A stretch of 64,000 bases of DNA from an uncultured Prevotella sp. (lineage in GTDB: Bacteria; Bacteroidota; Bacteroidia; Bacteroidales; Bacteroidaceae). The stretch is from the NCBI GenBank assembly GCA_946402275.1, contig CAMIVY010000002.1, forward strand, positions 144,724 through 208,723, written 5' to 3'. The notes beneath the pieces were generated by a model, which was given only the letters and a program-made list of their open reading frames with translations, searched no databases and was not told the DNA's origin. A program made the translations under genes and the position numbers. This document shows, one piece after another, positions 29,733 through 60,842 of this stretch; position 1 is the stretch's first letter; each line of letters starts with the position of its first letter.

Positions 29733-30212
29733 ATGAAGCAGCGACTTCTCTTTGTCTGCCTGGGAAACATCTGTCGTTCACCAGCCGCTGAAGGTATTAT
29801 GCAGCGACTGGTGGACGACAGAGGTCTATCTGACCAGTTCCACATTGAGTCGGCAGCTATCGGCCCTTGGCATATCGGTGATTTGCCTGACAGCAGGATG
29901 CGCCGCTGTGGCAACAAGCATGGCTATAACTTCAACAGTCGCGCCCAACAGTTGGACAGCTCGTATTTTGACCACTTCGACCTCATCATTGGAATGGATC
30001 ACGAAAACATAAGGGCCATTTCTTCCAAAGCCCGTAATGAAGAGGACAGGCGGAAAATCAGGCTGATGGCCGACTATCTGCATCACCACCCCTCGCAAGC
30101 CACGATTCCAGACCCTTACTATGGAGTGGAGCGCGACTTTGAATTGGTCATAGAGCTTTTGGAAGATGCCTGTGAAGGCTTACTGAAAGCTATCATAGAA
30201 CAAAAAAAATAA
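29733..30212 (+). CDS. Low molecular weight protein-tyrosine phosphatase
   Basis: P-loop VCLGNICRSPAAE and IPDPYYG. Confidence 0.93.
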   Translation: MKQRLLFVCLGNICRSPAAEGIMQRLVDDRGLSDQFHIESAAIGPWHIGDLPDSRMRRCGNKHGYNFNSRAQQLDSSYFDHFDLIIGMDHENIRAISSKARNEEDRRKIRLMADYLHHHPSQATIPDPYYGVERDFELVIELLEDACEGLLKAIIEQKK

Positions 30213-30246
30213 TGGAATAATAACAAAATAGACAGAGACTCAACAT

Positions 30247-32286: not shown

Positions 32287-32444
32287 CCCTCACGAGGGTG
32301 AGAGTTCTCTACACTGTAACGATAGTGGAAGTGGAGGGAATCGTAATCGACCTAAGTCGCTTTTACAAAGCGGAGCGACTAAAAGAACCCTCACGAGGGT
32401 GAGAGTTCTCTTCACTGTAACGATAGTGGAAGTGGAGGGAATCG
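32285..32444. repeat. 59-bp direct repeat of tmRNA 3' end and terminator, separated by a 42-bp hairpin
   Basis: 32285-32343 vs 32386-32444, one mismatch; period 101 bp. Confidence 0.92.
32381..32411 (-). terminator. tmRNA intrinsic terminator
   Basis: Minus strand AGAACTCTCAC-CCTC-GTGAGGGTTCT followed by TTT. Confidence 0.75.
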
Positions 32445-32821
32445 AACCCTCGTCCACACGAGGAAACCATACGCTTTCTACATGCTTATCTTGGCCTTCA
32501 TTTTCGTGCCGTGACAAGACCCAAGCCACCAATCACGACCTTATCCTCTAAATTTCATCAGACTATCGAGGCCTAACCTGACTATTCCCGATTTACCTGC
32601 ACCGCTTGACCCTCAGATTCGGGACTACATCCTTGGAGCGATGTCTCGTTCTCCTACCTTGTAAGAGAATTAGGCCAGTAAACTACTGTACTTCGTTTAG
32701 GCAGCGAGAGCGTACTTTGTTTCGCCAATTAATTTTCCGACCGACGTGATTATGGAGTCCACAGCCGTCACTCCGCATGCTTACGTACCATCTCGGCTCG
32801 CTGTCAAATCCAGTCACCCCC
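32424..32821 (-). ncRNA. ssrA: tmRNA
   Basis: 5' GGGGGTGACTGGATTTGAC; acceptor GGGGGTG/CACTTCC with G3-U70 and discriminator A; T-arm GAGGGTTCGATTCCCTC; tag ORF GETKYALAA-stop at 32726-32697; 3' end reads ACTA, so CCA is not fully encoded. Confidence 0.96.
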
Positions 32822-32845
32822 AAGATAAATATCGTAATTGGACTG

Positions 32846-32905
32846 CAAAAATACAACATATTTTCGATACAACCATCGTTTTCTCGGAAAAATTAGTTAA
32901 TTTTG
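32846..32905. promoter_or_regulatory. Divergent -7 boxes for ssrA (minus, 32846-32853) and the polysaccharide operon (plus, 32898-32905)
   Basis: TATTTTTG and TAATTTTG both match TAnnTTTG. Confidence 0.6.
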
Positions 32906-32943
32906 CACAATATTTAGCACGATAACGTGTTTTTATATTATTA

Positions 32944-35487: not shown

Positions 35488-35493
35488 GAAAGT

Positions 35494-36567
35494 ATGGAAG
35501 AGATGAAGAAAAACAGACCTGAGGTTATTGACATACGTATCATCTTTAAGCAGATACGAGACAATAAGATTTTGTTCTATAAAGTATTGTCAATCGTTTT
35601 CGTACTATCGTGCATATATATACTCGGTATTCCCCGTTATTACACCTCTGATGCAAAGCTGGCTCCAGAAATGGGAGGTTCTTCGACAGGAAGCATCGGA
35701 TCTATTGCTTCTGCCTTCGGATTTGACCTGAGTAATATGGAAACTGCCGATGCCATCTATCCGACTTTATATCCTGACCTGATGGAAGACGACGGTTTTG
35801 TCACAGGTTTGTTTAACATCCGAGTTGTCAGCCAGGACGGCCAGATCAACACGACTTACTACGATTATTTAAGGAAACACCAGAAGAAGAGTATATGGAG
35901 CTATCCCATAACTTGGATTAAAATCCTATTTACCTTTAAAAAGAAAGACCAAGGTAGCAAAGAAGGCAAATTTGATCCTTACAATCTGTCAGAACCAGAC
36001 TACGATATTGCGGAGTCTATCAGGGGTAACATCATGTTCAATTTCAATGAAAAGACTGGTATAGTCAGCATCAAGACCAAAGCACAAGACCCTCTTATCT
36101 GTAAAACACTGGCCGACTCCGTTATGGCCCACTTACAAGATTTCATAACAGAATATCGTACCAACAAGGCACGCATAGACTTTGATTATTACAGGCATCT
36201 GGCTACCAAGGCCAAAGAAGACTACGAGAAGGTTCGCAGGGTGTATGCCAGTATGGCCGATGCCACGACAAACGTATCATTGAAGAGCGTCGAATTGAAA
36301 TTGCAAGATATTGAGAATGACATGCAACTGAAATTTAATGCCTACACAACCGTCAACAATCAGTTGGAAGCAGCCAAAGCAAAGGTTCAAGAGCGTACCC
36401 CGGCTTTTACTACGCTGAAAGGAGCAGCTGTGCCCCAAAAACCTGCTGGTCCCAAAAGAGTATTCTTTGTACTCTTTATGCTTATTCTTTCATCAGTAGT
36501 AACGGCAGCTATCGTTTTACGTCACGATATAATTAAAACACTACCAATGAACTATCATAAAGATTAG
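35494..36567 (+). CDS. Wzz-like chain length determinant / co-polymerase
   Basis: IDI..IF N-terminus, two TM ends, DAIYPTLYPD, coiled coil, VQERTPAF...VPQKPAGPKR; no Walker A kinase domain. Confidence 0.85.
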   Translation: MEEMKKNRPEVIDIRIIFKQIRDNKILFYKVLSIVFVLSCIYILGIPRYYTSDAKLAPEMGGSSTGSIGSIASAFGFDLSNMETADAIYPTLYPDLMEDDGFVTGLFNIRVVSQDGQINTTYYDYLRKHQKKSIWSYPITWIKILFTFKKKDQGSKEGKFDPYNLSEPDYDIAESIRGNIMFNFNEKTGIVSIKTKAQDPLICKTLADSVMAHLQDFITEYRTNKARIDFDYYRHLATKAKEDYEKVRRVYASMADATTNVSLKSVELKLQDIENDMQLKFNAYTTVNNQLEAAKAKVQERTPAFTTLKGAAVPQKPAGPKRVFFVLFMLILSSVVTAAIVLRHDIIKTLPMNYHKD

Positions 36568-36570
36568 CTT

Positions 36571-37785
36571 GTGGAAATTGCCTTTTCTGACAAAATAAGT
36601 ATTTCTTTCAAAAAAGATATTCTGCTCACCCCCATGATATACGTGGTATGGGCATATATGGCTATTACCTATTTGAGAGGTATTTTTTTGCGCTTGCCCG
36701 TTATTAAAGACAACGTAGAGATTGCCATAATACTTTATTTTGCCTTTCCGGTTATTCTGGCAATTCCGTCATTGTTTAACAAATTCTGCTTGGGAGACTA
36801 CCTCTTTTATTTAGCCAATGTCTTGTTTCTGTTGTCAGGTTATGTTTTTTTCCCTGAGAACACTGAGTATTTAAATGAAAACATACTGACATGTATATTC
36901 TGTATTTTCCCTTTTTATTTCCTCGGACGGATAATCGAAATAGAAAAGTCATTTGATGCATTCCTTCTCCTGTCTGCAGCTTGTATTCTGCTTGACCTGT
37001 TCTACTTCTTAGTTTACGCCCAAAACAACAAGAACATGGAAGAAGTTGCCGGTCAGGACAATATGTTTGCAGCATATCAGATACTTCCGCACGTTGCATT
37101 TCTTCTATGGGCGACCTTGAAAAAGTTCCGAATCTGGAAAATTGTTACCACGTTTCTTGGCATATTATTCCTCCTTTCATGTGGAACACGAGGTCCCTTG
37201 GTATGCTTGGGATTTTTCACCATTATATATTTCTTCTTCTATATGAATTTCAAAGGAGCTGTGTATGTCAAATTTTTCATCCTTGCTATGGCAAGTATTG
37301 TGATTGTGAATTTGCAAAGCATTGCCATAGCTCTGGCCAAAGTATTTACTGGACTACAACTTAGCACACGTATCCTTGAGAAGTTTATTACCGGAGAGCT
37401 TGGAAATGATTCTTATCGGAGCGTTTTACGTGACAGGCTTTATGAGGTTCTGGACAGCGGAAACCATTTCTTTGGCCTCGGGGCTTTCGGCTGTCGCAAT
37501 TATGACATCGTGTATCCACATGTCTTGCATCTTGATTTTTTCTGTACATACGGCTATCTCGTCGGAACCGCACTTTTAATATTACTTTTCCTTCTTATCG
37601 GATGGGCATTTTGGCTTTCCCGAAATACGAGTGAGCAAGTGTTCTTGCTATTCCTGTTTTCGATCACCATCATAAAACTCCTATTAAGTGGCACCTTTAT
37701 TCAAGAACCCTATTTTTTTCTGTTAATTGGAGCATGCGTGAAAGTATTTTTAGATAAACGTTCTATACTCTATGATAACAGGTAA
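36571..37785 (+). CDS. Wzy polymerase / O-antigen ligase-like membrane protein
   Basis: About 11 TM segments, GTRGP motif, late periplasmic loop with FGLG and YPH...LD..YG. Confidence 0.75.
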   Translation: MEIAFSDKISISFKKDILLTPMIYVVWAYMAITYLRGIFLRLPVIKDNVEIAIILYFAFPVILAIPSLFNKFCLGDYLFYLANVLFLLSGYVFFPENTEYLNENILTCIFCIFPFYFLGRIIEIEKSFDAFLLLSAACILLDLFYFLVYAQNNKNMEEVAGQDNMFAAYQILPHVAFLLWATLKKFRIWKIVTTFLGILFLLSCGTRGPLVCLGFFTIIYFFFYMNFKGAVYVKFFILAMASIVIVNLQSIAIALAKVFTGLQLSTRILEKFITGELGNDSYRSVLRDRLYEVLDSGNHFFGLGAFGCRNYDIVYPHVLHLDFFCTYGYLVGTALLILLFLLIGWAFWLSRNTSEQVFLLFLFSITIIKLLLSGTFIQEPYFFLLIGACVKVFLDKRSILYDNR

Positions 37786-39217
37786 CAAGATAGTCAGTTC
37801 TTTTATTTGGAAATTGCTTGAAAGATTTTCATCACAAGCAGTTTCTTTAATGGTAACTATAATTCTTGCACGCCTTCTTCTTCCAAGCGAGTTCGGAATA
37901 GTAGCCATCATTACCGTTTTTATTGAATTGGCTAATGTCATTATAGACGGAGGGCTTAACACGGCATTGATACAAAAGAAAGAAGCCGACAACCTTGATT
38001 TTTCGACTATCCTGTATTTCAGTCTCGCACTGTCTTTTGCTCTATACATAATACTTTTTTTTGCTGCCCCCCACATCGCCTCTTTCTATGACAACACGAT
38101 ATTAACACCCGTATTACGAGTTCTGAGTATTAATCTGTTTTTCAACACTATTAATGCCATCCAGCGCGCATTCATCGCAAAAAACATGCTTTTCAACAAA
38201 TTGTTTTATTGCAATTTAGCAGCTATCATGACCTCTGGCTGCGTGGGAACAATCATGGCATATGGAGGCTGGGGCGTGTGGGCTTTGGTCTTTCAGCAAA
38301 TTGCAAACCAATTTATACTCACGGTGGTTATGTGGTTCACTGTCAAGTGGCGTCCTATCTTGAGATTCTCCATGGAACGATTCAAAGGGCTCTTCGACTA
38401 TGGATGGAAGATTTTTCTCACCAATCTAATCATTGCAATATATGAGAATGCAAGAAGTCTGATTATCGGCAAAATATACCATCCTTCAACTTTAGCTTTT
38501 TTTGACAGAGGAAAACAAATTCCCAGTCTTGCCATCACCAATTTCAGCGTATCTCTTCAGACCATCTTATTGCCTGCTTTTTCCGATATCCAAGATGACA
38601 AGATGCACGTAAGACAACTGATGACACACTCCATAAAACTAGTCAACGCCATCATTCTGCCCGTACTCGTATGCCTAGCTGTTTCGGCCAAACCACTTGT
38701 CATTCTTTTGCTTACAGAAAAATGGCTGCCTGCAGTACCATTCTTGCAGATTTTTTGTGTGGCTTATATGTTGATTCCTATCCAAAGTGCTAATATGAGT
38801 GCCATCAAAGCTTTGGGATATAGCAATATCACGCTTAAGATAGAACTCCTTAAGAAATTCATAGAAACAATTATTCTCATTGTCAGTTTCCTCATTAATG
38901 CCTACGCCGTTGCTTGGGGTATTGTGTTATATAATTTCATAAGCATAGCCATCAATTCATATCCATGCAAAAAAATCCTTGATTACGGTCCTAAAGAACA
39001 GACCATGGACATTCTCCCATACATACTCATTTCATTCCTCATGGGAGCAATCATCTATACTTTTTCCTTTATCAAGATGCACCCAGGAATTCTTCTCACA
39101 TTGCAAATCAGCAGTGGTTTTATTATATACATCATACTGAATATAGTTTTTAACACAAACGGTTATAAGTATGTAAAGCCCCTCATCAAAGAAAGACTAC
39201 ATTCAAATCATCATTAA
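37772..39217 (+). CDS. wzx: Wzx flippase
   Basis: ILARLLLPSEFG, DGGLNTALIQKK, GVWALV.QQ, LLTEKWLPAVP; 12+ TM segments. Confidence 0.88.
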   Translation: MITGNKIVSSFIWKLLERFSSQAVSLMVTIILARLLLPSEFGIVAIITVFIELANVIIDGGLNTALIQKKEADNLDFSTILYFSLALSFALYIILFFAAPHIASFYDNTILTPVLRVLSINLFFNTINAIQRAFIAKNMLFNKLFYCNLAAIMTSGCVGTIMAYGGWGVWALVFQQIANQFILTVVMWFTVKWRPILRFSMERFKGLFDYGWKIFLTNLIIAIYENARSLIIGKIYHPSTLAFFDRGKQIPSLAITNFSVSLQTILLPAFSDIQDDKMHVRQLMTHSIKLVNAIILPVLVCLAVSAKPLVILLLTEKWLPAVPFLQIFCVAYMLIPIQSANMSAIKALGYSNITLKIELLKKFIETIILIVSFLINAYAVAWGIVLYNFISIAINSYPCKKILDYGPKEQTMDILPYILISFLMGAIIYTFSFIKMHPGILLTLQISSGFIIYIILNIVFNTNGYKYVKPLIKERLHSNHH

Positions 39218-39226
39218 GCAAGTCAA

Positions 39227-40387
39227 ATGAAACGTGTAATGCTAATCTTCGGCACTCGTCCTGAAGCCATCAAGATGGCTCCATTGGTGAAAGAACTTCA
39301 GAAGCATCCCAAGGCTTTTGAGAGCCTAGTGTGTGTTACAGGACAGCACAGGGAACTACTTGATCAAGTTCTTAGAGTCTTCGATATCACACCTGACTAT
39401 GACCTAAACATTATGAAACAGGGACAAGACCTGTATGACATCACATCCCGCGTCTTGACAGGCATGCGCGAAATTCTACAGAAAGCCAAGCCAGACCTTG
39501 TACTGGTGCATGGAGACACAACCACATCAACAGCCTCAGCCTTAGCAGCCTTCTACCAGCAGATTCCTGTAGGACATGTTGAGGCAGGGCTTCGCACCAG
39601 AAACATATACTCACCATGGCCAGAAGAGATGAACCGCCAAATTACAGGGCGTTTAGCAACCTACCATTTTACCCCCACCACACTCTCCAAAAAGAACTTG
39701 CAGGAAGAATGCGTTCAAGGTAAAATTATCGTGACAGGCAACACGGTTATAGATGCACTCCACATGGTGACAGACAGGCTTTCCCAAGATAAGGTTTTGG
39801 CCAAAGAACAGGAAGCCGCCCTATTAAAGGCCAGCTATGATGTCATGCGCTTGGACAATGGTCGGAAGCTGATTCTCATAACAGGACATCGGCGCGAAAA
39901 CTTCGGAGAAGGTTTTATCAATATGATAACAGCCATCAAAGACCTTACACGAAAGTATCCTGATGTTGATTTCGTTTATCCCATGCATCTTAATCCTAAC
40001 GTCCGCAAGCCCATACATGAGGTATTTGGTGAAGATTTAAGCTGTTTGGGGAATATATTCTTCATCGAACCCCTTCAATATCTAGAGTTTGTATATCTGA
40101 TGGAGAGAGCACATATTGTACTTACTGATAGTGGGGGCATACAAGAGGAAGCCCCTGGCTTGGGTAAGCCAGTTCTCGTGATGCGTGACACCACAGAACG
40201 CCCTGAAGCAGTAGAGGCAGGAACGGTACACCTTGTGGGAACTGATTATAACCTCATTATTAAAGAAGTCAGCACGCTGCTTGAGAACCGGGAAGCCTAC
40301 CAGAAAATGGCAAAAGCTGTCAATCCCTATGGAGACGGGAAAGCCTGTAAACGGATAGTAGAAGCACTTATTGAAAGTTTAACGTAA
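39227..40387 (+). CDS. wecB: UDP-N-acetylglucosamine 2-epimerase (non-hydrolysing)
   Basis: FGTRPEAIKMAP, TGQHR, VHGDTTT, HVEAGLRT, TGHRRENFG, TDSGGIQEEAP, TERPE, NPYGDG. Confidence 0.95.
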   Translation: MKRVMLIFGTRPEAIKMAPLVKELQKHPKAFESLVCVTGQHRELLDQVLRVFDITPDYDLNIMKQGQDLYDITSRVLTGMREILQKAKPDLVLVHGDTTTSTASALAAFYQQIPVGHVEAGLRTRNIYSPWPEEMNRQITGRLATYHFTPTTLSKKNLQEECVQGKIIVTGNTVIDALHMVTDRLSQDKVLAKEQEAALLKASYDVMRLDNGRKLILITGHRRENFGEGFINMITAIKDLTRKYPDVDFVYPMHLNPNVRKPIHEVFGEDLSCLGNIFFIEPLQYLEFVYLMERAHIVLTDSGGIQEEAPGLGKPVLVMRDTTERPEAVEAGTVHLVGTDYNLIIKEVSTLLENREAYQKMAKAVNPYGDGKACKRIVEALIESLT

Positions 40388-40398
40388 GATACTAAAGT

Positions 40399-41496
40399 AT
40401 GCATGCACATATCATATACAATTACCTTAAGCCTAACGGAGTGGGCATTTCCATAGGTGGTGTACAAACTTACATTACCAATCTCATCCCTTTATTGAAA
40501 AAGAGCGGATACAGCATTACCATCTATCAAGTTTCCGATTTGGACTTCCACCAGGAATTTGCTGACTATGACATATATGGACTAAAAACAGATGAAAGGA
40601 AGCAAACTGCTGCTGTGTTATCAGCATTTGCATTTCAGCACATCAACCCAACAACCGACTTGTTAATATACGGAACAGACTTCCTAATCCATAAAAAATC
40701 ACCGTGCCGCTCCATTGCCATACAACACGGAATTTCTTGGGACATCCCGTTTGACAACTGCTCAAAATTGAGATATTTAAAGCACTACTTAGGAAAATGC
40801 AAAGATGCATGGAAGACCATTCAGCGAGTGAATAAGGTTGACCAATTAGTATGCGTTGACTACAACTTTGTCAATTGGCACAGGGCAACATCTCCCTATT
40901 CAAAAACACGACACATTGTCATACCTAATTTTTCTGCCATTCCAGCATTTCAGCCGCAAAAAAACAATAAAGACATCAAAATAATATTTGCAAGACGACT
41001 CTTCGCCTATCGTGGAACCCGTCTTTTTGCAGATGTAGCAGAAAGGATATTAACGGAGTATAAGAATGTCTGTGTTACGATAGCCGGCACCGGACCAGAT
41101 GAAGACTATATGCATCAGAAACTGGATAAATTCTGCAATGTGGAATTCACTACATACGAAAGCAAAGACAGTCTAAGAATCCACGAAGACAAGAATATTG
41201 CCGTTGTGCCTACCTTAGGATCTGAAGGTACATCTTTGTCTCTCTTGGAGGCAATGGCATCAGGATGCGCTGTAGTATGTACCAATGTGGGAGGAATGAC
41301 TAATATCGTACTAGACGGATATAATGGACTTTTGGTCAATCCTGAAAAAGAAGATCTCTATCAAGCACTTCGGAACCTGATAGAAGATATTGCCACAAGA
41401 ACAGTACTACAAGCTAATGCATATATGACCGTCAGCAAAGCCTTCTCACTGGAAAAATGGCAAAGGAGATGGCTAACACTACTTCAACGACAATAA
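40399..41496 (+). CDS. GT4 glycosyltransferase
   Basis: GGVQTY, EGTSLSLLEAMASG..VV.TNVGG (EX7E). Confidence 0.88.
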   Translation: MHAHIIYNYLKPNGVGISIGGVQTYITNLIPLLKKSGYSITIYQVSDLDFHQEFADYDIYGLKTDERKQTAAVLSAFAFQHINPTTDLLIYGTDFLIHKKSPCRSIAIQHGISWDIPFDNCSKLRYLKHYLGKCKDAWKTIQRVNKVDQLVCVDYNFVNWHRATSPYSKTRHIVIPNFSAIPAFQPQKNNKDIKIIFARRLFAYRGTRLFADVAERILTEYKNVCVTIAGTGPDEDYMHQKLDKFCNVEFTTYESKDSLRIHEDKNIAVVPTLGSEGTSLSLLEAMASGCAVVCTNVGGMTNIVLDGYNGLLVNPEKEDLYQALRNLIEDIATRTVLQANAYMTVSKAFSLEKWQRRWLTLLQRQ

Positions 41497-41507
41497 ATAA
41501 GAAAGAA

Positions 41508-42641
41508 ATGGAAAAATTATGTTGTTTCTTCAATTACAACCCACTATACCGGTTTCCGATTTACAGCGAGATGTCAAGACAGCTTGAGTGCGATTTCTAC
41601 TTCGGCGACTCTGTTTTCGAACCCTTAAAGCAGTTTGACCCACAAAAGCTGAAAGGATTTCAGAAGACATTGCATACCGTCAGGCTATTTAGAGAATACA
41701 AATGGCATAAGGGGGTGCATTCACTCTTGAAGGGATACTCTGCATATCTGATTACTGGCCAATACGAATATCTCTCTTACTGGGTTATTATCTTCTATGC
41801 AAAGCTAACAGGGAAGCGCATATATTGCTGGACGCATGGTACATCCCAAAAAGCCTTAGGTAAAACTAAAGAACGGCTTATAAACAAGCTTTTTTTTAAG
41901 GTCATGGATGGAATACTCATGTACAACAGTTACAGGATTCCAAACATGGAAGCTATAGGGATCAGTGCCAACAAACTTTTCGTCATCCACAATTCACTCG
42001 ACAGTCCATTTCAAACAGATATCTATGACAAACTGCAACCCTCCAGCATCTATAGAGACCATTTCCATAACGACCTTCCAACTGTAATTTATATTGGACG
42101 CATACAAAAACGCAAGAAAATAGATTTGCTAGTAAAAGCCATCGCCTACCTTTATCATGACAACAATCCTCTTAATCTTGTCATTGTCGGAAAAGCCACT
42201 CAGGAAAACGATATTGAGCAGTTAGTTCTGGACAAGGGAATTGCTGACCATGTATGGTTCTATGGTCCCTGTTTTGAAGAGGAGAAAAATGCTGAGTTGC
42301 TTTACAACGCCGCAGTTTGTGTATGCCCTGCAGAAGTCGGTTTGACTGCTATTCACTCTCTGACGTATGGTACACCAGTTATTTCCAACAACGATTTTGA
42401 CACACAAATGCCAGAATTTGAAGCCATCATCAATGGCGAAACTGGTTCTTTCTACCAGGCTGGTGATATTCCTAGCCTTGCTCAGGAGATAGTAAGATGG
42501 AGCAATAAGACAACAGAAGAGCGCACTGCCATACGTGCCCGGGCAAGGAAAGAAATCACAACATCATGGAGCATAAACTATCAAATAGATGTACTAAGAA
42601 ACGTTTTTCCAGATTACAAATCATCATATAAGTCGAAATAG
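41508..42641 (+). CDS. GT4 glycosyltransferase
   Basis: YIGRIQKRKKID, GLTAIHSLTYGTPVI, QMPEFEAI; likely start ATG 41508 rather than 41457. Confidence 0.8.
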   Translation: MEKLCCFFNYNPLYRFPIYSEMSRQLECDFYFGDSVFEPLKQFDPQKLKGFQKTLHTVRLFREYKWHKGVHSLLKGYSAYLITGQYEYLSYWVIIFYAKLTGKRIYCWTHGTSQKALGKTKERLINKLFFKVMDGILMYNSYRIPNMEAIGISANKLFVIHNSLDSPFQTDIYDKLQPSSIYRDHFHNDLPTVIYIGRIQKRKKIDLLVKAIAYLYHDNNPLNLVIVGKATQENDIEQLVLDKGIADHVWFYGPCFEEEKNAELLYNAAVCVCPAEVGLTAIHSLTYGTPVISNNDFDTQMPEFEAIINGETGSFYQAGDIPSLAQEIVRWSNKTTEERTAIRARARKEITTSWSINYQIDVLRNVFPDYKSSYKSK

Positions 42642-42646
42642 CTACT

Positions 42647-43906
42647 ATGAGAGTATTATGGATCACCAACAGTCTCCTTCCCGAAGCTATTGCAAAGATT
42701 CGGAAGGAAGAAATCCAACAATGGAAAACGACAGGAAGTTGGATTATTGGAGCGGCCAATGCACTAACTAAAGAACAGAACATACAGTTGTATATGGTCT
42801 CTACATCTCAGCAAGTAAAGTCGCTAACCAGAATAGAGACAGCAGACATTGTGTCTTATGCCATTCCCTACGGGAAAGGTTGCGAGTCAGTTAATACAGA
42901 ATACAACAAATACATGAAGGCCATCAATGATGAAGTAAGGCCAGACATCATTCATATTCACGGGACAGAATATTCACATGGCTGGGCGTGGATTCAAGCA
43001 TGCGGTAGCCAACATGTCGTAATATCCATCCAAGGAATGACTTCGGTTTGTAGCCAATATTACCACGAAGGTATCAGCATCTGTGAAATCTTAAGCGCCA
43101 TATCCTTCCGAGATATTATACGTGGCGGCATGCTACGAGGGCAGATGTCATTCAGAAAACGCGGCGAGTACGAGAAGAAGATGATACAGTCCGTAAGACA
43201 TGTCATAGGGCGAACTTCATGGGACCATGCCCACGTTATGACCATAAACCCTCATTGTACATATCATTTCTGCAATGAGACTCTAAGAGATGACTTTTAT
43301 ACCGGAGAGAACTGGGAATACGGGAATTGCCAACCCTATACCATATTTATCAGTCAGTCGCTGAATCCGTTTAAAGGTTTGCATCAATTAATAAAAGCTC
43401 TGCCACATATATTAAAGTCTTTTCCAGACACACATGTCTTTGTTGCCGGTGAAGATCCTACGCTCGGATACGACATTTCCAATTGGTGGAGAATCACTGG
43501 TTATGGAAGATATCTTAAGCATCTCATGCGTCATTTGGACGTCAAGAAGCATATCACGTTTATTGGGAATGTCGATGCGAGACAAATGAAGGAAGAATTG
43601 TTAAAATGTAATGTCTTCGTTATGCCCTCAGCAATAGAGAACAGCCCTAACTCTTTAGGCGAAGCACAGATACTAGGTGTTCCATGTGTCGCATCCTACG
43701 TAGGAGGAATACCAGACATGATGAAGGGTAATGAGGAGAATCTATATAGATATGAGGAAACGGAAATGCTTGCCAGGCTGATTTGTCGTGTATTCATGGA
43801 AAAAGATCACCAGACTGATATGTCAACAATAGCAGCCTTGCGACACTGTCCTCAAAAAAATCTTAAGGATTTGATTTCTATTTATGAAAGCATTTTGAAT
43901 TTATAA
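42647..43906 (+). CDS. GT4 glycosyltransferase
   Basis: PDIIHIHGTE, KGLH, ENSPNSLGEAQILGVP.VASYVGG. Confidence 0.88.
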   Translation: MRVLWITNSLLPEAIAKIRKEEIQQWKTTGSWIIGAANALTKEQNIQLYMVSTSQQVKSLTRIETADIVSYAIPYGKGCESVNTEYNKYMKAINDEVRPDIIHIHGTEYSHGWAWIQACGSQHVVISIQGMTSVCSQYYHEGISICEILSAISFRDIIRGGMLRGQMSFRKRGEYEKKMIQSVRHVIGRTSWDHAHVMTINPHCTYHFCNETLRDDFYTGENWEYGNCQPYTIFISQSLNPFKGLHQLIKALPHILKSFPDTHVFVAGEDPTLGYDISNWWRITGYGRYLKHLMRHLDVKKHITFIGNVDARQMKEELLKCNVFVMPSAIENSPNSLGEAQILGVPCVASYVGGIPDMMKGNEENLYRYEETEMLARLICRVFMEKDHQTDMSTIAALRHCPQKNLKDLISIYESILNL

Positions 43907-43924
43907 CATAACAAGTAAAATAGC

Positions 43925-44857
43925 ATGACTGAAGTTACGTTCATGAAAATAGCAGCAATACTCACCGTACACAATCGTAAGCAGAAAACACTCACATGTT
44001 TACGTCACCTCTTTGATGCAACCAACCACTATAACAACAAGGAGAAAGGAAAAATCAAATTGTCAGTCTATCTGACTGACGACGGATGTACCGATGGGAC
44101 CGCCGAAGCTGTTATGAAATCTTTTCCTGGTCGACATATCCGTATCCTTAGGGGAACAGGATCACTCTTTTGGGCTGGCGGCATGCGTCTTGCGTGGAAG
44201 ACTGCTATGGAAGAAAGCGAAGAATGGGACTACTATCTTCTATTGAATGATGACACCAATATGATGGATTCTGTCTTTGACGAACTGTTTGAAGCAAATA
44301 GCTATGTTCTCAAGCAGACAGGCAGACAGGGTATAATATCTGGTATCACCTGTCAACCTGGAAACAAGTCCCAAATCACCTACGGAGGACTCAACTTCGT
44401 CAACAAGACCAAAGGACGGCAGGTTCTTGTTTTGCCAAACGAAGTACCACAGCGTATAGATCTTACCCATGCCAACATTTTACTGGTTCACCACTCAATA
44501 GTAAAAGAGATAGGGATTTTCTACAGAGGCTACACCCATGGCTGTGCAGACATCGACTATAGCATGATGGCTAAGCGACATGGTATTCCAACTTATTCTA
44601 CAGCAAATGTATGCGGCGAATGCGTTTACGACCACATATCACAGAAAGAAGAGGCTGAACACCTTACCACGATGACATTAACAGAACGTAAAAAATACGT
44701 CAACTCACCCACACATTGCGACAGTGATTACCTACAATTTGTATATCGCAATTTGCCATTGCGATATCCCTTGGCATGGCTATTGCGTACTATCCGAGTT
44801 TATGTTCCCTATTTATACTTACATATCACAAATTTCAGAGGTGTTTACAAATCATGA
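43925..44857 (+). CDS. GT2 glycosyltransferase
   Basis: LTVHNR, TDDGCTDGT, LFWAGGM, LLNDDT, ADIDY. Confidence 0.87.
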   Translation: MTEVTFMKIAAILTVHNRKQKTLTCLRHLFDATNHYNNKEKGKIKLSVYLTDDGCTDGTAEAVMKSFPGRHIRILRGTGSLFWAGGMRLAWKTAMEESEEWDYYLLLNDDTNMMDSVFDELFEANSYVLKQTGRQGIISGITCQPGNKSQITYGGLNFVNKTKGRQVLVLPNEVPQRIDLTHANILLVHHSIVKEIGIFYRGYTHGCADIDYSMMAKRHGIPTYSTANVCGECVYDHISQKEEAEHLTTMTLTERKKYVNSPTHCDSDYLQFVYRNLPLRYPLAWLLRTIRVYVPYLYLHITNFRGVYKS

Positions 44858-45672
44858 GCGTTTCTGTTATCATACCCACCTATAAGCCTCAGGAGTATTT
44901 ATTCAATTGTCTTGATTCGCTATGCCTGCAAACGCTGAATAAAGACCAATTCGAGGTTATCATTGTACTTAACGGACCGAAGAATCCTTACTTTGACCTT
45001 ATAGACAGCTACATCCAAACCCATTTTGACATTATCAACATACGCACTCTTTATAGTGACATACCTGGAGTGTCAAATGCCCGCAACAAGGGCATTGACG
45101 AGGCTTTGAGTAAATATATTACTTTTATAGATGATGACGATGTCGTAAGTAAGACTTTTCTTGAGGAATTATTAGCAAAGGCCCATGAAGATTGCTTGGT
45201 AATATCCAATGTCTATGGAATTGATGATACCACAGGCAAAGCTTATGAATATTTACTTTCTAAAGAATACAAAAAAATAGCCCGTATTGAAACGCCCTCA
45301 TTCTTCACTGCCAGGAGACTCTTGTCACCTGTTTGGTGCAAAATAATACCTCAAAAAGTAATTAACGGCGACCGTTTTCCTACTGATTTTGCCTTGGGTG
45401 AAGATTCCCTCTTTATGTTCAACATTTCACGGAGAATCAAAGACATCCGAATAACTTCTCCGGACGCAGTTTACTATGTCCGCCATCGCAATGGTTCCGC
45501 ATCCCGCCGCCATTATAGTTACTGGTTTCGCATACTTCTGGCATTCCGAACGACATTTCGGTATTTTTTCATCTACATAAGAACGCCTTTCTCTTACAAC
45601 TTTCCCTTTTTTATGACCCGTATAGCAGCCACCCTACGAAAACTAGCAAGGAAAGCATACGAGACTGAATAG
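44854..45672 (+). CDS. GT2 glycosyltransferase
   Basis: VSVIIPTY, GVSNARNKG, FIDDDD, LGEDS; start ATG 44854 overlaps the upstream stop (ATGA). Confidence 0.87.
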   Translation: MSVSVIIPTYKPQEYLFNCLDSLCLQTLNKDQFEVIIVLNGPKNPYFDLIDSYIQTHFDIINIRTLYSDIPGVSNARNKGIDEALSKYITFIDDDDVVSKTFLEELLAKAHEDCLVISNVYGIDDTTGKAYEYLLSKEYKKIARIETPSFFTARRLLSPVWCKIIPQKVINGDRFPTDFALGEDSLFMFNISRRIKDIRITSPDAVYYVRHRNGSASRRHYSYWFRILLAFRTTFRYFFIYIRTPFSYNFPFFMTRIAATLRKLARKAYETE

Positions 45673-45689
45673 ACCGTGACAAGGACAGT

Positions 45690-46454
45690 CTAGAGTTTAA
45701 ACTCAAAAATCTTGTAAAGGAACTTCACACTAATCATCAGCGGATTGGTGTAGATACCATTCTCACGACAACCACGTACATCGTCCTTGATGAGCTGCAA
45801 TCGGCTCTTTATATTGCATGTACTGGCACCACCAGTTCGCATAGTTACAAAATCAATAGGCAAATATTTCGCCTTAATTTTATAAACCATAAACAAACGG
45901 ACCATCATCTCATAATCAGAACCTATCTTATAATCTATCTTATAGAGACCCGCTTTTTCGTACACTTCCCTTCGGCAATAAAACGAAGGATGGGCTGGCA
46001 TGAAACCGAAACGGAGCCACATCGGACGAAAGGGCTTTGAGCTGTAATAGCGCACGATTTTGTCTGGCTCGCCGTCGTGTATAAAATGTATGTCCCCATA
46101 TACTGCATCAATGTTTGGGTCGTCAAAATTAACTACCATTCGTTCTATCACATCATCGCCCGTAAAATAGTCATCAGAGTTCAAAATGCCTACGATGTCG
46201 CCCGTAGCCATCCGTATTCCTTTATTCATGGCGTCATAGATACCTCCGTCCTTTTCGGAAATCCACTTCAGACGGCCACTAAACTGTGGTTCATATTGAT
46301 GTATGATATCCAATGAATTATCATGAGAGGCACCATCGACAATGATATATTCTATATCTGCATAGGATTGCGCTAGCACTGACTTTATTGTCTCTTCCAA
46401 TGTAGAAGAGCTATTGTATGCAACAGTTACTATTGATACTTTCATCTTTTTCAT
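45690..46454 (-). CDS. GT2 glycosyltransferase (WcaE-like), inverted relative to the cluster
   Basis: VSIVTVAYN, IIVDGAS.D, SEKDGGIYDAMNKG, LNSDD, PAHP, SDYE, MRTGGAS; likely start 46454 or 46445. Confidence 0.88.
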   Translation of the reverse strand: MKKMKVSIVTVAYNSSSTLEETIKSVLAQSYADIEYIIVDGASHDNSLDIIHQYEPQFSGRLKWISEKDGGIYDAMNKGIRMATGDIVGILNSDDYFTGDDVIERMVVNFDDPNIDAVYGDIHFIHDGEPDKIVRYYSSKPFRPMWLRFGFMPAHPSFYCRREVYEKAGLYKIDYKIGSDYEMMVRLFMVYKIKAKYLPIDFVTMRTGGASTCNIKSRLQLIKDDVRGCRENGIYTNPLMISVKFLYKIFEFKL

Positions 46455-46605
46455 TATTTTTATAACGCAATATCTTTTTAGATATTGTGTATAATCCATG
46501 ATTATATTACATCATGACAAGTCACTACACCTATCTTTATGCTAAAATAACATTAGAAAACAGCAATAGCCCAACAAAACACTTGCATATCTCAAGAAAA
46601 AGTCA

Positions 46606-46613
46606 TACCTTTG
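46606..46613 (+). promoter_or_regulatory. -7 box TACCTTTG upstream of the 11-bp array and orphan gene
   Basis: Matches TAnnTTTG with TTG at about 46583. Confidence 0.6.
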
Positions 46614-46680
46614 CCAAATCGTACTCCAATTTAGGTCTAACTTACCTCCAAAACATTCAAGTTTCAGCCTCTTTTCTTGT

Positions 46681-46830
46681 GCGATTGAACTACGTTTGAT
46701 ATACGTTTGTTGTGCGTTCATAAATCGGACAACAATCGAACAACAATCGAACAACAATCGGACAACAGTTGGAGGAAGAGCGAAGGAAGGACGGGGCAAA
46801 GGTAGAGATGAAATGGAGTTCGGTTGGACA
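46681..46830. repeat. 11-bp periodic array
   Basis: Core AATCG(G/A)ACAAC x4 (46723-46766); CG falls every 11 bp from 46682 to 46792. Confidence 0.85.
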
Positions 46831-46873
46831 GTAATTATAGTAGAATTAGCGAACAATTAGATCATATTGAGGT

Positions 46874-47614
46874 ATGAAAAGGAAAGGAACAGGAAAAGGA
46901 CTGATGGTTGTTGGCAGTATGCGAAAGGACGGCATTACGACCTACATGAAGCAAGGCAGGATGATTATTCGGTCTGCCAACTCCATGGAGAAGCGCAGCA
47001 ATACGCTGCCTCAGTTTATTCAACGGCAGAAAATGCGTCATTCCGTGGCGCTATGGAGGATGATGAAGTATTGTGAGCCGATGTTTACCAAAGGAACAAC
47101 GGCTTATAACAACTTCCTGTCGCTGGCCAATCGGTTGCCGGTGTTGTATGTAGAAAAGATACTGATGGAGAACACATCGTTTCTGATGCCAGGCATACCC
47201 GTAAGTGACGGTAACCTTCCGAAGATTAAAGAGGAGTTGGGCGTGGTGGACGGAATGCCAGCCCTGATTACTAATCTCAAGCCTCATGACTGGGAACCTT
47301 GGACGAAGTTATGGCTTTATACCGCCGTTCAGACTGGTGAATACAGAGATCTTCACGTGCAGTTCAGCAAACGCGAAGTATCTTGGGAAGAGATGACGGT
47401 GGTGGACGGACATTATGTATTGAAGTGTAAGGAATTCTCCGATGAGACAAAAGGCTGGGCACTGGTGTTGGTAAAAGGGGAACGCTGTTCGCCACAGGCC
47501 ATTGTTACACGTTGTACGCTATACCAAAAGTACATGACAGAAGAAGCCTTAGAGAAAGCAGCAGACAGCTATGGCGGACTGACTGACACCCCGTATCTGT
47601 CACCAAGTCGATAA
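46874..47614 (+). CDS. Hypothetical protein with basic N-terminus (DUF6266-like N-terminal pattern)
   Basis: 246 aa; G..V.GS...G.T.Y...G..IIR....RSNT..Q..QR.K pattern; no signal peptide. Confidence 0.6.
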   Translation: MKRKGTGKGLMVVGSMRKDGITTYMKQGRMIIRSANSMEKRSNTLPQFIQRQKMRHSVALWRMMKYCEPMFTKGTTAYNNFLSLANRLPVLYVEKILMENTSFLMPGIPVSDGNLPKIKEELGVVDGMPALITNLKPHDWEPWTKLWLYTAVQTGEYRDLHVQFSKREVSWEEMTVVDGHYVLKCKEFSDETKGWALVLVKGERCSPQAIVTRCTLYQKYMTEEALEKAADSYGGLTDTPYLSPSR

Positions 47615-47659
47615 ACTTGAAAAAACAATGTGAATAGACACAATAAAACGTAATAATGG

Positions 47660-47678
47660 CAGTTATATAATATAACTG
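47660..47678. promoter_or_regulatory. 9-1-9 palindrome, possible operator
   Basis: CAGTTATAT-A-ATATAACTG, 10 nt before ATG 47689. Confidence 0.45.
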
Positions 47679-47682
47679 ATAA

Positions 47683-50600
47683 TTGCATATGACGATATAT
47701 CTACTTATTGCATTTTTATTAAGTATGATTTGTGGGCTAATCTTCACGCCCCTCATCTTGGATTTCTGCAAGCGGAAGAAGCTCTACGACATACCCAACG
47801 AGCGGAAAGTGCATAAGAATGCCGTTCCTCGGTTAGGTGGTCTCTCTTTTTTTCCAAGCATGATGATGGCATTCGTCATCGTACTGGTTTTCTTCTCATT
47901 CAACAGGCAAGGTGACATCCCCATAAAGACGTGGAGCATGAGCTTCATTACAGGACTGGCCATCATCTATTTGATAGGCATTATTGACGACTTGATAGGA
48001 CTGAATGCCAGCAGTAAATTCATCGCCCAGATAATAACAGCCTGCTTGCTGCCGATTTCCGGACTGTACATCAACAACCTCTATGGACTTTTTGGTATCT
48101 ATGAACTTCCTTATGCTGTAGGCATTCTGCTGACCATTTTCATCATTGTTTTTATTGACAATGCCATCAATCTCATAGACGGCATCGACGGACTGGCAGG
48201 CAGTCTGTCGCTGTTGGCTTTAGGTGGTTTCCTTGCATACTTCGTACACAACGATGTATTCGTACATACCTACAACATTTTAGTAGCTGGTATGATGGGA
48301 GCATTGGTCACTTTCCTATACTTTAACATTTTTGGGCGGACTGAGCGAAACACAAAGATTTTCATGGGCGATTCCGGCTCATTGTCTTTAGGATTCACAT
48401 TAGGATTTCTCTCGATAAAATGTATGATGAACAACATCGCTGTATGGCCAGAACGGTCTGATGCCCTATTGGTGCCCATCTCGCTGTTGTTTGTGCCTAC
48501 AGCTGACGTCGTAAGGGTCACCTTACATCGACTGCGCCATTGTAGCCCTCTGTTTCTTGCAGACAAGAACCACATCCACCACAAGCTCTTGAGAGCGGGG
48601 TTGTCACAGCATCAGGCGTTAGCTGCCATTCTGGTGATGGCTATTGCCGTCATCTTGCTGAACTGGCTACTCTTCCCTACTCTGAACACATTGTGGATAG
48701 TGGCTATTGACACTGCCATTTACTGTCTGATCAACGTATGCATCAACCAATGGATAGACAGCAATTATTTGAAACGGGCTTTCGATGTGGTCCTCTCGTG
48801 TATGTGCCTCATCTTGTTTTCACCCTTGATACTCATTTGTTATCTCATTATCAAGATAGGAGGGGGACCCGCTATCTACAAGCAAGAACGTATCGGCAAG
48901 GGAGGTCGGCCCTTCTATATCTACAAATTCCGAAGCATGACGGTTGATGCAGAGAAAGAGGGCGAGGAACTGCTGCAACTGGACAACGACCCACGACAGA
49001 CAAGAATCGGACGCATCCTTCGCAGTCACCATCTGGATGAACTGCCTCAGTTATGGAACGTCCTTTGTGGCGACATGTCCTTTGTCGGACCTCGTCCGGA
49101 ACGCAAATACTACATCGACCAAATCATGGAACGTGATTCTCGCTATGAAAAACTTTATGCCTTACGTCCAGGTGTCACTTCCTATGCCACGCTGAAAAAC
49201 GGCTATACGGATACCATCGACAAAATGCTGGTACGCCTGGAAATGGATTTATACTATCTGGAGCATCAATCATTATGGACTGATATAAAAATCTTAATGA
49301 AAACTTTTGGAAACATCGCATCTGGACGGATTTTCTGTATAGCCTTCGCAATCCTATGTGCAAACAATCTTCAAGCACAGGATTCGCTACAGACTCGCAT
49401 TACCTACGACCTGACAACGGAAGCTGCCGTAGGAACGGGCGACTTTACAGCCTACCAGTTGACTACCAATCGACACCATGTGCTTGCCACCCGTCCTAAC
49501 ACGGCTTATCTGCGGGGTGCGGTCAACATAGAGCATGCGTTCAACGAAAACTGGAAATTGTCAGGTGCTATCGATGCCATCGGTTCCCTGCATGCTGACC
49601 ACAAAGCCTACCTGCAGCAGTGTTATGCCAACCTGAGTTGGAAACAGTTCTTCCTGGAGGTGGGTAGCAGGGAGCAAGAAATGGTGGTACGTGACAACCT
49701 GCTCTCCGTGGGTTCGTTTGTCAATGGCATTAATGCCAAGCCTATTCCACAGATACACGTCGGAACCAAAGGCTTCTGGAATGTACCTTTCACAAAAGGC
49801 TGGGTACAGATAAACATCGACTTCGGCTACGGAAAATTCCTGGATAACAGCTATCGTGAGAAACAATATTTTGATCATCAGGATGTCAGTTACCAATATG
49901 CCACAGGAGCCTATTATCACCATAAGCACCTCTATATCCGAAGCAATCCCGAGAAGCCCGTTTTCATAACCGTAGGTATTAATCATGTTGCACAGTTTGG
50001 TGGTACCAATAATGACTATCGAACAGGAACCCTGATCACCAAAAGCAAACCAGCCAACTTCAAGGCTTTCTGGAAGATTATCTTTCCGGCTGGAGACAGC
50101 AACTATTTCGAGAACGAGTCAATGGAAGACTGGGTATATGGCAATCACCTCGGCTTGTTAACTTACCAAATTGGATGGAACATCAACAAGAACCATCAGG
50201 TGCAGGCCTATCTGGACAATCCTTTTGAAGATGGCTCAGGTATGCGTAAGGGCAACGGATGGGACGGACTATGGGGACTGCAGTATAGCAACAAAACGCC
50301 CGGCAGGCAGTATGTGCGCGGTGCTGTCTTTGAATATTTCCAAAGCACCAACCAGTCTGGTCCCTTGCATTGGGACAGTGGTGATTATCCGGAACCTATC
50401 CGTAGCCAGATTACCGACTTAGTGACGGGTAATGACAATTATTACAATCACTCGTTCTATGGTAGTTATGCTCACTACGGCATGACGCCAGGCATTGGCC
50501 TGATTACTTCACCTATTTATAATAAGAATGGGTTCAATGAGTTTAGCAACAATCGTGTCAAAGCATGGCATCTGGGTGTCAATGGCGAGTTGACAGACCA

Positions 50601-50817
50601 TCTGTCCTATCTAGCCAAAGGCTCTTATCAGGAAGGATGGGGCACCTATAGTGCTCCTGCACCTCAAAAGCTACACTCTTTCGATGCCCTGTTCCAAGGC
50701 AACTACAAGCTGGGACCTTGGCAGTTCTCTGCTGCCTACGCCTTTGATGCAGGCAACATCTATGGTCACAACAATACGTTTAACATTAAAATCGGTTATC
50801 ATGGCAAGATTTTTTAA
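47683..50817 (+). CDS. Triple fusion: WecA/MraY-type polytopic phosphoglycosyltransferase + PglC/WbaP-type sugar transferase + Wzi-like outer-membrane barrel
   Basis: aa ~1-360: DIPNERKVH..PRLGG, IIDDL, NLIDGIDGL, FMGDSGS, HIHH. aa ~364-550: KRAFD, KFRSM, DPR.T..G, LDELPQL.NVL.GDMSFVGPRP. aa 566-1044: QQCYA, NAKPIPQ, YGNHLG, DNYYNH, LITSP, NNRVKAWHLG, terminal F. Likely start ATG 47689. Confidence 0.85.
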   Translation: MHMTIYLLIAFLLSMICGLIFTPLILDFCKRKKLYDIPNERKVHKNAVPRLGGLSFFPSMMMAFVIVLVFFSFNRQGDIPIKTWSMSFITGLAIIYLIGIIDDLIGLNASSKFIAQIITACLLPISGLYINNLYGLFGIYELPYAVGILLTIFIIVFIDNAINLIDGIDGLAGSLSLLALGGFLAYFVHNDVFVHTYNILVAGMMGALVTFLYFNIFGRTERNTKIFMGDSGSLSLGFTLGFLSIKCMMNNIAVWPERSDALLVPISLLFVPTADVVRVTLHRLRHCSPLFLADKNHIHHKLLRAGLSQHQALAAILVMAIAVILLNWLLFPTLNTLWIVAIDTAIYCLINVCINQWIDSNYLKRAFDVVLSCMCLILFSPLILICYLIIKIGGGPAIYKQERIGKGGRPFYIYKFRSMTVDAEKEGEELLQLDNDPRQTRIGRILRSHHLDELPQLWNVLCGDMSFVGPRPERKYYIDQIMERDSRYEKLYALRPGVTSYATLKNGYTDTIDKMLVRLEMDLYYLEHQSLWTDIKILMKTFGNIASGRIFCIAFAILCANNLQAQDSLQTRITYDLTTEAAVGTGDFTAYQLTTNRHHVLATRPNTAYLRGAVNIEHAFNENWKLSGAIDAIGSLHADHKAYLQQCYANLSWKQFFLEVGSREQEMVVRDNLLSVGSFVNGINAKPIPQIHVGTKGFWNVPFTKGWVQINIDFGYGKFLDNSYREKQYFDHQDVSYQYATGAYYHHKHLYIRSNPEKPVFITVGINHVAQFGGTNNDYRTGTLITKSKPANFKAFWKIIFPAGDSNYFENESMEDWVYGNHLGLLTYQIGWNINKNHQVQAYLDNPFEDGSGMRKGNGWDGLWGLQYSNKTPGRQYVRGAVFEYFQSTNQSGPLHWDSGDYPEPIRSQITDLVTGNDNYYNHSFYGSYAHYGMTPGIGLITSPIYNKNGFNEFSNNRVKAWHLGVNGELTDHLSYLAKGSYQEGWGTYSAPAPQKLHSFDALFQGNYKLGPWQFSAAYAFDAGNIYGHNNTFNIKIGYHGKIF

Positions 50818-51193
50818 ATATTTTCTCTTATCACTTTTCGCTATTCACTTTTCACTTCTCTTCTCCTCGTGTCAAGAAGGAAGAGAAGCCGGTGATTTGC
50901 TAGGCCAGTGGCGCATGGATCATACCGATTCCAAATACATCAGTTTCTCTGGTTCACTTGTTTGGATCAAGGATCTCAATATGGGTGCTGTTAACGGAAA
51001 TTTCCAACACACAGGCGACAGTTTGTTTATTCAATGTTATTCGGAAAAGGCAGAGAAAAAAGACACCACACTCCTTGAAGAATCATTTGGTTTCAAACCC
51101 TTCAATAATATCAGGGTAAAAATAGCTGCCTTAGATAATGACCAGCTCGTCATTACCAAAGGCAGCCAAACATGGAGTTTCCACAAATACTGA
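50801..51193 (+). CDS. Small lipocalin-like lipoprotein
   Basis: ATG 50801 gives MARFFK...FSSC lipobox; GDLLGQWR, FQHTGDSL, W.FHKY tail. Confidence 0.7.
   Translation: MARFFKYFLLSLFAIHFSLLFSSCQEGREAGDLLGQWRMDHTDSKYISFSGSLVWIKDLNMGAVNGNFQHTGDSLFIQCYSEKAEKKDTTLLEESFGFKPFNNIRVKIAALDNDQLVITKGSQTWSFHKY
50824..50858. repeat. TCACTTT heptamer repeat in lipoprotein signal peptide
   Basis: tctctta tcacttt tcgctat tcacttt tcacttc; encodes LLSLFAIHFSL. Confidence 0.65.
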
Positions 51194-53249: not shown

Positions 53250-53258
53250 ATAATCATA

Positions 53259-55391: not shown

Positions 55392-55396
55392 AACTA

Positions 55397-58860: not shown

Positions 58861-58872
58861 AGCTAACAGTTG

Positions 58873-60822: not shown

Positions 60823-60842
60823 AATACAATTCTTTTAAATGA

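Follow-up and report, generated by a model that had tools for sequence, protein, structure and literature searches.

How can enzymes of the inner membrane and a barrel of the outer membrane come from one and the same reading frame, and how would the barrel part from the enzymes? The question is raised by a gene in the 64,000-nucleotide stretch of Prevotella DNA analysed here (hereafter the window; contig CAMIVY010000002.1, positions 144,724 to 208,723), where an open frame of 1044 codons, counted from TTG 47683, runs uninterrupted on the plus strand from 47683 to 50817. An original prediction, made from the sequence, had seen in it two unrelated priming transferases fused to a Wzi-like outer-membrane barrel, with an internal signal peptide at which the barrel would be released. 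We find that in this rumen Prevotella-type bacterium a single real gene encodes both priming enzymes and the barrel, and that it is a fusion of three ancestrally adjoining genes (wecA-type, small monotopic transferase and wzi-type) closing a capsule/exopolysaccharide locus. As to the supply of the barrel, we favour, with slightly better than even confidence, a reading in which two precursors feed it, the full polyprotein and a shorter pre-barrel begun inside the gene, each being cut between A565 and Q566.

Domains of the fused gene and its occurrence

Residues are numbered throughout with TTG 47683 as codon 1, as in the original prediction. The gene itself probably starts two codons further in, at ATG 47689, giving a product of 1042 residues, because the near-identical homologue P0002 opens with MTIYLL. 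The three-domain architecture in one open frame was borne out by the frame, the profile matches and a fold model (Table 1), and all the motifs previously quoted (DD, DGIDG, FMGDSGS, HIHH, KRAFD at residue 364, LDELPQ, GPRP and the internal ATG 49297) lie at their given places.

The first part matched PF00953 over residues 86-247 (Pfam; E 8.7e-30, 104.3 bits against a cut-off of 27) and TIGR02380 (NCBIfam ECA_wecA) over residues 9-321. Since the 127.6 bits of the latter match fall under the equivalog cut-off of 326, the domain is of WecA type and not a WecA orthologue. Its motifs are all there (DD, NxxNxxDGIDGL, FMGDSGS and HIHH). The monotopic transferase matched PF02397 over residues 364-545 (Pfam; E 3e-63, 213 bits, covering profile positions 1-177 of 179) and EPS_sugtrans over residues 361-548 (NCBIfam). 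It shows a hydrophobic segment at residues 363-398 by hydropathy, the sequence LILFSPLIL of a re-entrant helix with its Ser-Pro break, the Asp-Glu dyad in LDELPQ and the PRP motif in GPRPE, and it is complete through its native last residues, SGR-IF. Because each of them retains its catalytic motifs, both transferase domains are probably active priming enzymes.

The genes for the WecA-type and the small transferase adjoin in nearly all congeners searched, and fusions of the two domains (574 residues, or about 613-630 residues) are very common in the genus and its metagenomic relatives. Bifunctional monotopic transferases (BiPGT) are known with acetyltransferase or glycosyltransferase partners (PMC11626204). 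In that class, as in the window gene, a monotopic core is joined to another enzyme of the pathway; unlike in the window gene, the partner is not a polytopic WecA-type enzyme or an outer-membrane barrel in the part of that source available to us, which mentions neither. Our literature search found no description of the WecA-transferase pairing, which brings together the two unrelated priming superfamilies; one may ask why a single locus should need a pair of initiating enzymes side by side. In another congener, G005 (contig C26, 52960-53556), a transferase-domain match lies within a 1058-residue open frame, which may be a further long fusion of different make-up.

No Pfam match was obtained for the C-terminal part (about 500 residues) even at E <= 10, and a profile of 61 barrel homologues found no match among PDB sequences. 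The family link is therefore drawn from the homologues and from the fold. The part has about 1000 relatives among the representatives of 50%-identity clusters. PF14052 (Wzi), which missed the window's own barrel, is matched by 48 of the 61 aligned barrel homologues; the barrel of P0014, 62% identical to that of the window, matches it at E 1.3e-20, and a 76%-identical homologue is labelled 'capsule assembly Wzi family protein' at NCBI. An AlphaFold model computed with the homologue alignment as input is a large beta-barrel (predicted local distance difference score, pLDDT, 90.8), which upholds the barrel nature of this part. Its top solved match is Wzi of E. coli K30 (2YNK; Foldseek E 3.6e-14); VIA-align to 2YNK gave a Z of 29.1 and a root-mean-square deviation of 3.1 A over 358 residues, the next family reaching a Z of 22.6. 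The Wzi fold is an outer-membrane barrel of 18 strands, 18 being the count of Wzi itself. In the window the first strand begins 5 residues past Q566, and since the part of Wzi to which the model aligns is limited to residues 90-477, there is no N-terminal helical plug.

K30 Wzi, a lectin of the outer membrane, anchors group 1 capsule. Like it, the window barrel belongs to a Wzx/Wzy-type locus that also encodes an OPX exporter; unlike it, the window barrel has no direct Pfam match and lacks the plug (the Wzi residues before 90), and the two are only 13% identical. The term Wzi-like therefore stands for fold and family, but with the plug absent it does not assure a capsule-anchoring role. For Wzi-like barrels that lack the plug and are encoded near OPX genes, a role as export porins and not anchors has been put forward (bioRxiv 10.1101/2022.02.11.480155); the barrel as modelled here may be either a capsule anchor or an export porin. 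A single barrel homologue was found in this draft genome (89% complete, 73 contigs).

Such a frame might be an error of sequencing or assembly, or a recent accidental fusion heading for loss. The draft state of the genome would agree with this, as would the rarity of a stop-free transferase-barrel junction, present in 2 of 301 species representatives of the genus (the window's genome, G000, and G191). Yet the stretch 48500-49600 is present in runs of 12 sheep and cattle gut studies, six RNA libraries included, and contigs of independent runs cross both junctions without indels. Two contigs of X2, an independent DNA run, cover 48141-48869 (record 18) and 49192-50223 (record 19); in X3, from another study, record 26 spans 47619-49460 in a strain about 98.6% identical, with all indels upstream of the start codon. 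Contigs from RNA libraries also bridge the junctions (X13 records 2 and 5, X16 records 11 and 14) and, being contigs, they tell of presence and not of transcript ends or expression levels.

Nor is the architecture confined to this assembly. The triple fusion recurs in P0002 (97% identity, 168 member sequences), in P0003 (90% identity; a shorter record of 908 residues covering 87% of the query) and in P0004 (68% identity, from two samples). Fusions of the transferase and the barrel, about 682 residues long, make up at least 25 clusters (67-82% identity); P0025, one such cluster, stands on seven contigs of up to 240 kb. With the catalytic motifs and the barrel intact in fusions conserved over 67-97% identity and in many samples, error or decay is largely refuted, and we hold it to be very improbable. 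The architecture, its conservation and its presence in RNA libraries are direct observations.

Other enzymes were also seen fused upstream of Wzi-family barrels: a GT2 glycosyltransferase (744 residues), a CDP-alcohol phosphatidyltransferase (735 residues), and a WecA-type enzyme without the small transferase (860 and 879 residues). These fusions (P0229, P0337, P0330 and P0014) suggest that the theme of an enzyme joined to a Wzi barrel recurs; P0014 has kept, in frame, the Met and the basic N-terminal part that belong to its barrel.

An internal signal peptide and two possible precursors of the barrel

About 90 stand-alone homologues of the barrel carry a classical signal peptide of 20-22 residues made of a Met, a basic residue, a hydrophobic core and a small residue, with Gln-Asp next, and their mature forms begin QD(S/T)L..(I/V)(T/S)YDL. 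This QD start fits the Bacteroidetes Q-rule, by which Gln often stands at the start of signal peptidase I (SPase I) products (PMC5837995). In the fused forms the transferase end ...SG(R/K)(I/V/M)F stands in for the Met and basic N-terminal part; the hydrophobic core is retained in all of them together with the cleavage region and its Gln, even at 67% identity; position -3 holds A, V, S, T, I or L, and position -1 holds A or, in one case, C. By this comparison, residues 549-565 of the window protein are read as the remnant of the barrel's ancestral signal peptide, to which the terminal Arg/Lys of the transferase would give the positive charge. The Gln that follows, Q566, is encoded by CAG at 49378.

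We then considered the topology, using a simple hydropathy scan and the K/R-rich loops. The WecA part has 11 predicted transmembrane segments and every loop that bears a motif is K/R-rich, which implies an N-terminus outside and a C-terminus inside; E. coli WecA has the same arrangement. Behind this part come the re-entrant helix, a 145-residue cytoplasmic transferase domain and then residues 549-565. Since the C-terminus of the WecA part and the transferase are both cytoplasmic, the internal signal would insert correctly: it would run through the membrane from inside to outside, the orientation that SPase I requires. The intact cleavage site and the consistent topology are observed; the cleavage itself, and the share of each route described below, we infer. 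Because the core and cleavage region are kept and the orientation is right, a cut between A565 and Q566 is well supported by the sequences, whichever the precursor, and the site proposed in the original prediction before Q566 is backed by both the stand-alone precursors and the topology.

In the reading that we favour, the two transferase domains would stay joined in the inner membrane as a bifunctional enzyme, and SPase I would free the barrel, which would then travel to the outer membrane. One route would be the read-through polyprotein begun at ATG 47689, with residues 549-565 spanning the membrane; the other would be a shorter pre-barrel begun at ATG 49297, with a signal peptide of 27 residues. 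The first of these precursors must exist: no stop separates the parts, so that every ribosome starting at 47689 makes the whole chain, and the gene is a cleavable polyprotein in the formal sense. Left uncut, each enzyme molecule would carry an unfolded barrel domain of 480 residues, and that the fusion has lasted down to 67-68% identity, all its domains intact, speaks for a chain that is cut. For the Bacteroidetes -7 motif TAnnTTTG, no copy was found on the plus strand in 47683-50817; the nearest lie at 46606-46709, and the count in the window is at the level of chance. Without a promoter-like motif inside the gene, all products would share one mRNA.

The case for the second route comes from the transferase tails, which we compared between 30 fused clusters (25 distinct tails) and 206 unfused transferases (79 distinct tails). 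A Met at tail position 13, 17 or 18 was found in 15 of the 25 distinct fused tails as against 5 of the 79 distinct unfused ones. On the barrel tree the Met states at these positions need 4, 3 and 2 changes, respectively, and within the window's close group the Met shifts position (KILMKTF in P0001/2, TDMKIL in P0003/6/7, none in P0005). ATG 49297 itself has the weakest local structure among the in-frame positions of the gene (minimum free energy -0.2 kcal/mol) and an AT content of 0.75, at the 98th percentile, a context as good as that of the true start; Bacteroidetes choose their starts by low mRNA structure and upstream adenines and not by a Shine-Dalgarno sequence (PMC6847099). Moreover, two 'unfused' barrel genes, P0126 and P0185, bear a relic of the transferase tail as leader, from which we take it that a pre-barrel with such a leader can be made on its own.

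Several observations weigh against this reading of the tails and of the cleavage site. The fused clusters are related, so that the Met counts are not independent. When in-frame ATG, GTG and TTG codons were counted in the tail at the DNA level, they were present in 7 of 7 fused and 8 of 11 unfused genes. The tail Met is absent from 5 of the 30 fused clusters (P0005, P0022, P0024, P0025 and P0029), and three Met-less clusters with a Val there, read at the DNA level, offer only a GTG at -20 that also occurs in unfused genes. In P0004 the surroundings of the sole tail ATG are GC-rich and of ordinary structure. A context of low structure and high AT is unspecific, because fused genes without a Met share it, and may only reflect coding rich in K, I, L and F. 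As for the cleavage site, the Leu at -3 is accepted by SPase I, although it is not the commonest residue there. Where the tail ATG is poor or missing, the polyprotein route or a non-AUG start must suffice, and from their sequences the polyprotein route appears to be sufficient in some relatives.

Should all of the barrel then come from the read-through precursor, with the internal ATG unused and the parts at 1:1:1? The uninterrupted frame, the topology and the conserved cleavage region would fit, the five Met-less clusters persist in several samples, P0004 has only its poorly placed ATG, and there is a precedent in the cleaved cytochrome b/c1 precursor FbcH of Bradyrhizobium. We nevertheless consider this unlikely: Met is enriched and turns over in the fused tails, ATG 49297 is the least structured site of the gene, in a phylum that picks its starts by low mRNA structure (PMC6847099), and unfused relatives would translate the barrel from the same leader. 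In addition, the barrel tree calls for at least 6-13 switches between the fused and the unfused state, and with the state changing so often, tight coupling cannot be essential. The fixed 1:1:1 ratio of the original prediction is for these reasons unlikely, since the enrichment of tail Met and the context of ATG 49297 speak for an additional start, and the supply of the barrel is probably not locked to that of the enzymes. Cleavage of the polyprotein as a source of the barrel is favoured by the internal signal and its orientation, but not as the sole established way of making it.

The opposite extreme, a gene nested in another, whose working barrel comes solely from the internal start while the read-through fusion is unproductive, untranslocated or degraded, strikes us as somewhat less probable still. 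It would agree with the same Met enrichment and start context, and with the N-terminal position of the signal peptide in stand-alone genes. Against it, a hydrophobic segment behind a cytoplasmic domain of an inserted protein normally inserts and would here expose the cleavage region; an uncleaved or stalled barrel of 480 residues on every WecA-transferase should come at a cost, and still the fusion is kept down to 67-68% identity; and some fused genes have no credible ATG. The internal start, which the original prediction had named as the alternative to cleavage, therefore gains from the Met enrichment, the least structured site and the relic leaders, and loses from the unspecific context and the similar counts at the DNA level. 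We return to the two-route reading as the one that accommodates a start at ATG 49297 together with a processed polyprotein. A bolder proposal, which we regard as possible though rather doubtful, is that of a working envelope polyprotein. In it the barrel would be made attached to the WecA-transferase, cut by SPase I and passed from a precursor tethered to the inner membrane to the chaperone and beta-barrel assembly machinery (BAM) route. Glycan initiation and the barrel would be coupled in amount and place, and the solution would have arisen repeatedly, as in the GT2-, CDP-alcohol-transferase- and WecA-Wzi fusions.

By analogy, the closest precedent for a cut polyprotein would be FbcH, in which one open reading frame encodes a polytopic protein, an internal signal-like segment and an exported domain, and the product is processed into two. 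The window gene is likewise a single stop-free frame, with an internal core and a small-residue cleavage site running from inside to outside. Both FbcH products stay in one inner-membrane complex, whereas the part released in the window would go to the outer membrane and need BAM, its cleavage being predicted. For the second route, in-frame internal initiation yields shorter isoforms of IF2 and ClpB; there too an in-frame AUG within a longer frame gives a second product off the same mRNA, but in the window the short product would be a different, exported protein and not an isoform. Our literature search found no description of a transferase-Wzi fusion. If the read-through precursor is processed, the gene would be a natural bacterial polyprotein linking inner-membrane enzymes with an outer-membrane barrel, of which we found none in the literature searched. 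It would then allow a test of whether SPase I and BAM accept a barrel whose signal is internal and preceded by 550 residues of membrane protein. If the barrel comes mainly from the internal AUG, the gene would show Bacteroidetes, which ignore Shine-Dalgarno sequences, rebuilding a start within the upstream gene once a deletion has taken away the original. This case would be less surprising and would help gene calling, such barrels being now annotated only as 'sugar transferase'.

Origin of the fusion from adjoining genes

In congeners the three genes stand separate and in the same order. Those for the WecA-type enzyme and the transferase overlap in an ATGA, the transferase ends in GK(I/K)F and a stop, and wzi comes either a few codons later or in a different frame. 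A DNA alignment with the unfused loci L031 and L018 and the fused L016 places a net frame change of 1 nt at the WecA-transferase junction, immediately upstream of the former ATGA. Where the transferase had its ATG, the window has TTG and P0004 still ATG; TTG 48769 lies at the 96th percentile for local structure and at the 95th for AT content. Judged from the alignments, a frame change and a deletion appear to have removed both gene boundaries in the window. The unfused blocks of wecA, small transferase, wzi-like and lipocalin genes (G015 contig C59, G298 and L031/L032) hold the same genes in the same order at 65-85% identity, and L031/L032 also share the downstream neighbours of the window, the small lipoprotein and the arabinofuranosidase. 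Unlike in the window, stops part the genes of these blocks, and a Met and a basic N-terminal part of its own open the barrel.

To explain which genes are fused and which unfused, the barrel tree requires at least 13 changes of state, at least 6 of which are forced by well-supported branches. A single ancient fusion inherited vertically was rejected on this count, and because the tree demands so many changes, the state of fusion seems to have flipped repeatedly, probably via recombination between loci. As for the two barrel genes with a relic leader, P0126 lies behind a complete transferase gene and a spacer with the promoter-like motif TAccTTTG, with downstream neighbours as in the window, and P0185 lies behind an aminotransferase gene.

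The orthologous locus of L031/L032 (2894-3140), with the same flanking arabinofuranosidase, has a complete 189-residue transferase with its own stop and a spacer of about 100 nt with TAccTTTG, and the leader of its barrel holds a relic copy of a transferase tail, LKILQRTFGNITSGR. This looks like a fused gene that has been 'un-fused' by recombination.

Neighbouring genes of the polysaccharide locus

The features of the fused gene and its surroundings are collected in Table 1.

Table 1. Position and basis of the features described in the window, with records of related two-domain fusions
Feature	Position or record	Strand	Basis
Complete fused gene, 1042 codons	47689..50817	+	Independent DNA and RNA-library contigs bridge it
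WecA-type polytopic phosphoglycosyl transferase (PNPT/GT4), residues 3-362	47689..48768	+	PF00953, TIGR02380, hydropathy, K/R-rich loops
TTG (L363) replacing the ancestral ATG of the small transferase; WecA-transferase junction	48769..48771	+	DNA alignment
Small monotopic phosphoglycosyl transferase (PglC/WcfS type), residues 363-553	48769..49341	+	PF02397; tail compared with 206 unfused homologues
In-frame ATG (M539), candidate internal start, 27 codons before the cleavage site	49297..49299	+	Local structure, AT content
Predicted internal signal-peptide core, residues 549-565 (hydrophobic core and cleavage region ending LQA)	49327..49377	+	Alignment with stand-alone precursors; hydropathy peak
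Predicted mature Wzi-family outer-membrane beta-barrel, plug-less, residues 566-1044 (Gln first, Phe last; stop included)	49378..50817	+	Homologues, model, Q-rule
Lipocalin-like lipoprotein gene, 130 residues	50801..51193	+	PF16585 Lipocalin_8, E 1e-6; lipobox FSSC
Remainder of the Wzx/Wzy-type polysaccharide locus	29733..47614	+ (one GT2 on minus)	Pfam scans
Two-domain WecA-monotopic fusions, examples	P0031-P0121; G003 contig C32, G016 contig C4		

Upstream of the fused gene, the locus holds a low-molecular-weight phosphatase, a DsbD-like protein, an 847-residue OPX exporter (32944-35487), a Wzz-like protein, a Wzx flippase, a UDP-GlcNAc 2-epimerase and GT1 and GT2 transferases, all by Pfam. 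Directly upstream, on the plus strand at 46874-47614, stands an open reading frame of 246 residues without a Pfam match. The three TAnnTTTG motifs of 46606-46709 lie ahead of it. It probably heads the transcription unit of the fused gene, and has a counterpart of 242 residues in the same position in L031/L032.

On the downstream side, the lipoprotein gene begins inside the barrel gene, its ATG overlapping the final 17 nt. Every related locus seen has, behind the barrel, a homologous gene of 125-144 residues that overlaps in the same way, and for this reason the lipocalin-like lipoprotein is, on sequence grounds, a likely functional partner of the plug-less barrel. Beyond it, on the minus strand at 51195-62792, a cluster of arabinofuranosidase (ASD1/Alpha-L-AF_C with CBM4_9) and GH43 genes directly abuts the polysaccharide locus. 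At 50806-50936, the CT-rich part of the lipoprotein gene that encodes its signal peptide, the summed contig depth of public runs jumps to 550-1100x, and one public-run contig skips 50819-50933 (a 113-nt skip). A mobile element at this place was not accepted, as both the depth jump and the skip rest on a short flank of 23 nt in the CT-rich stretch.

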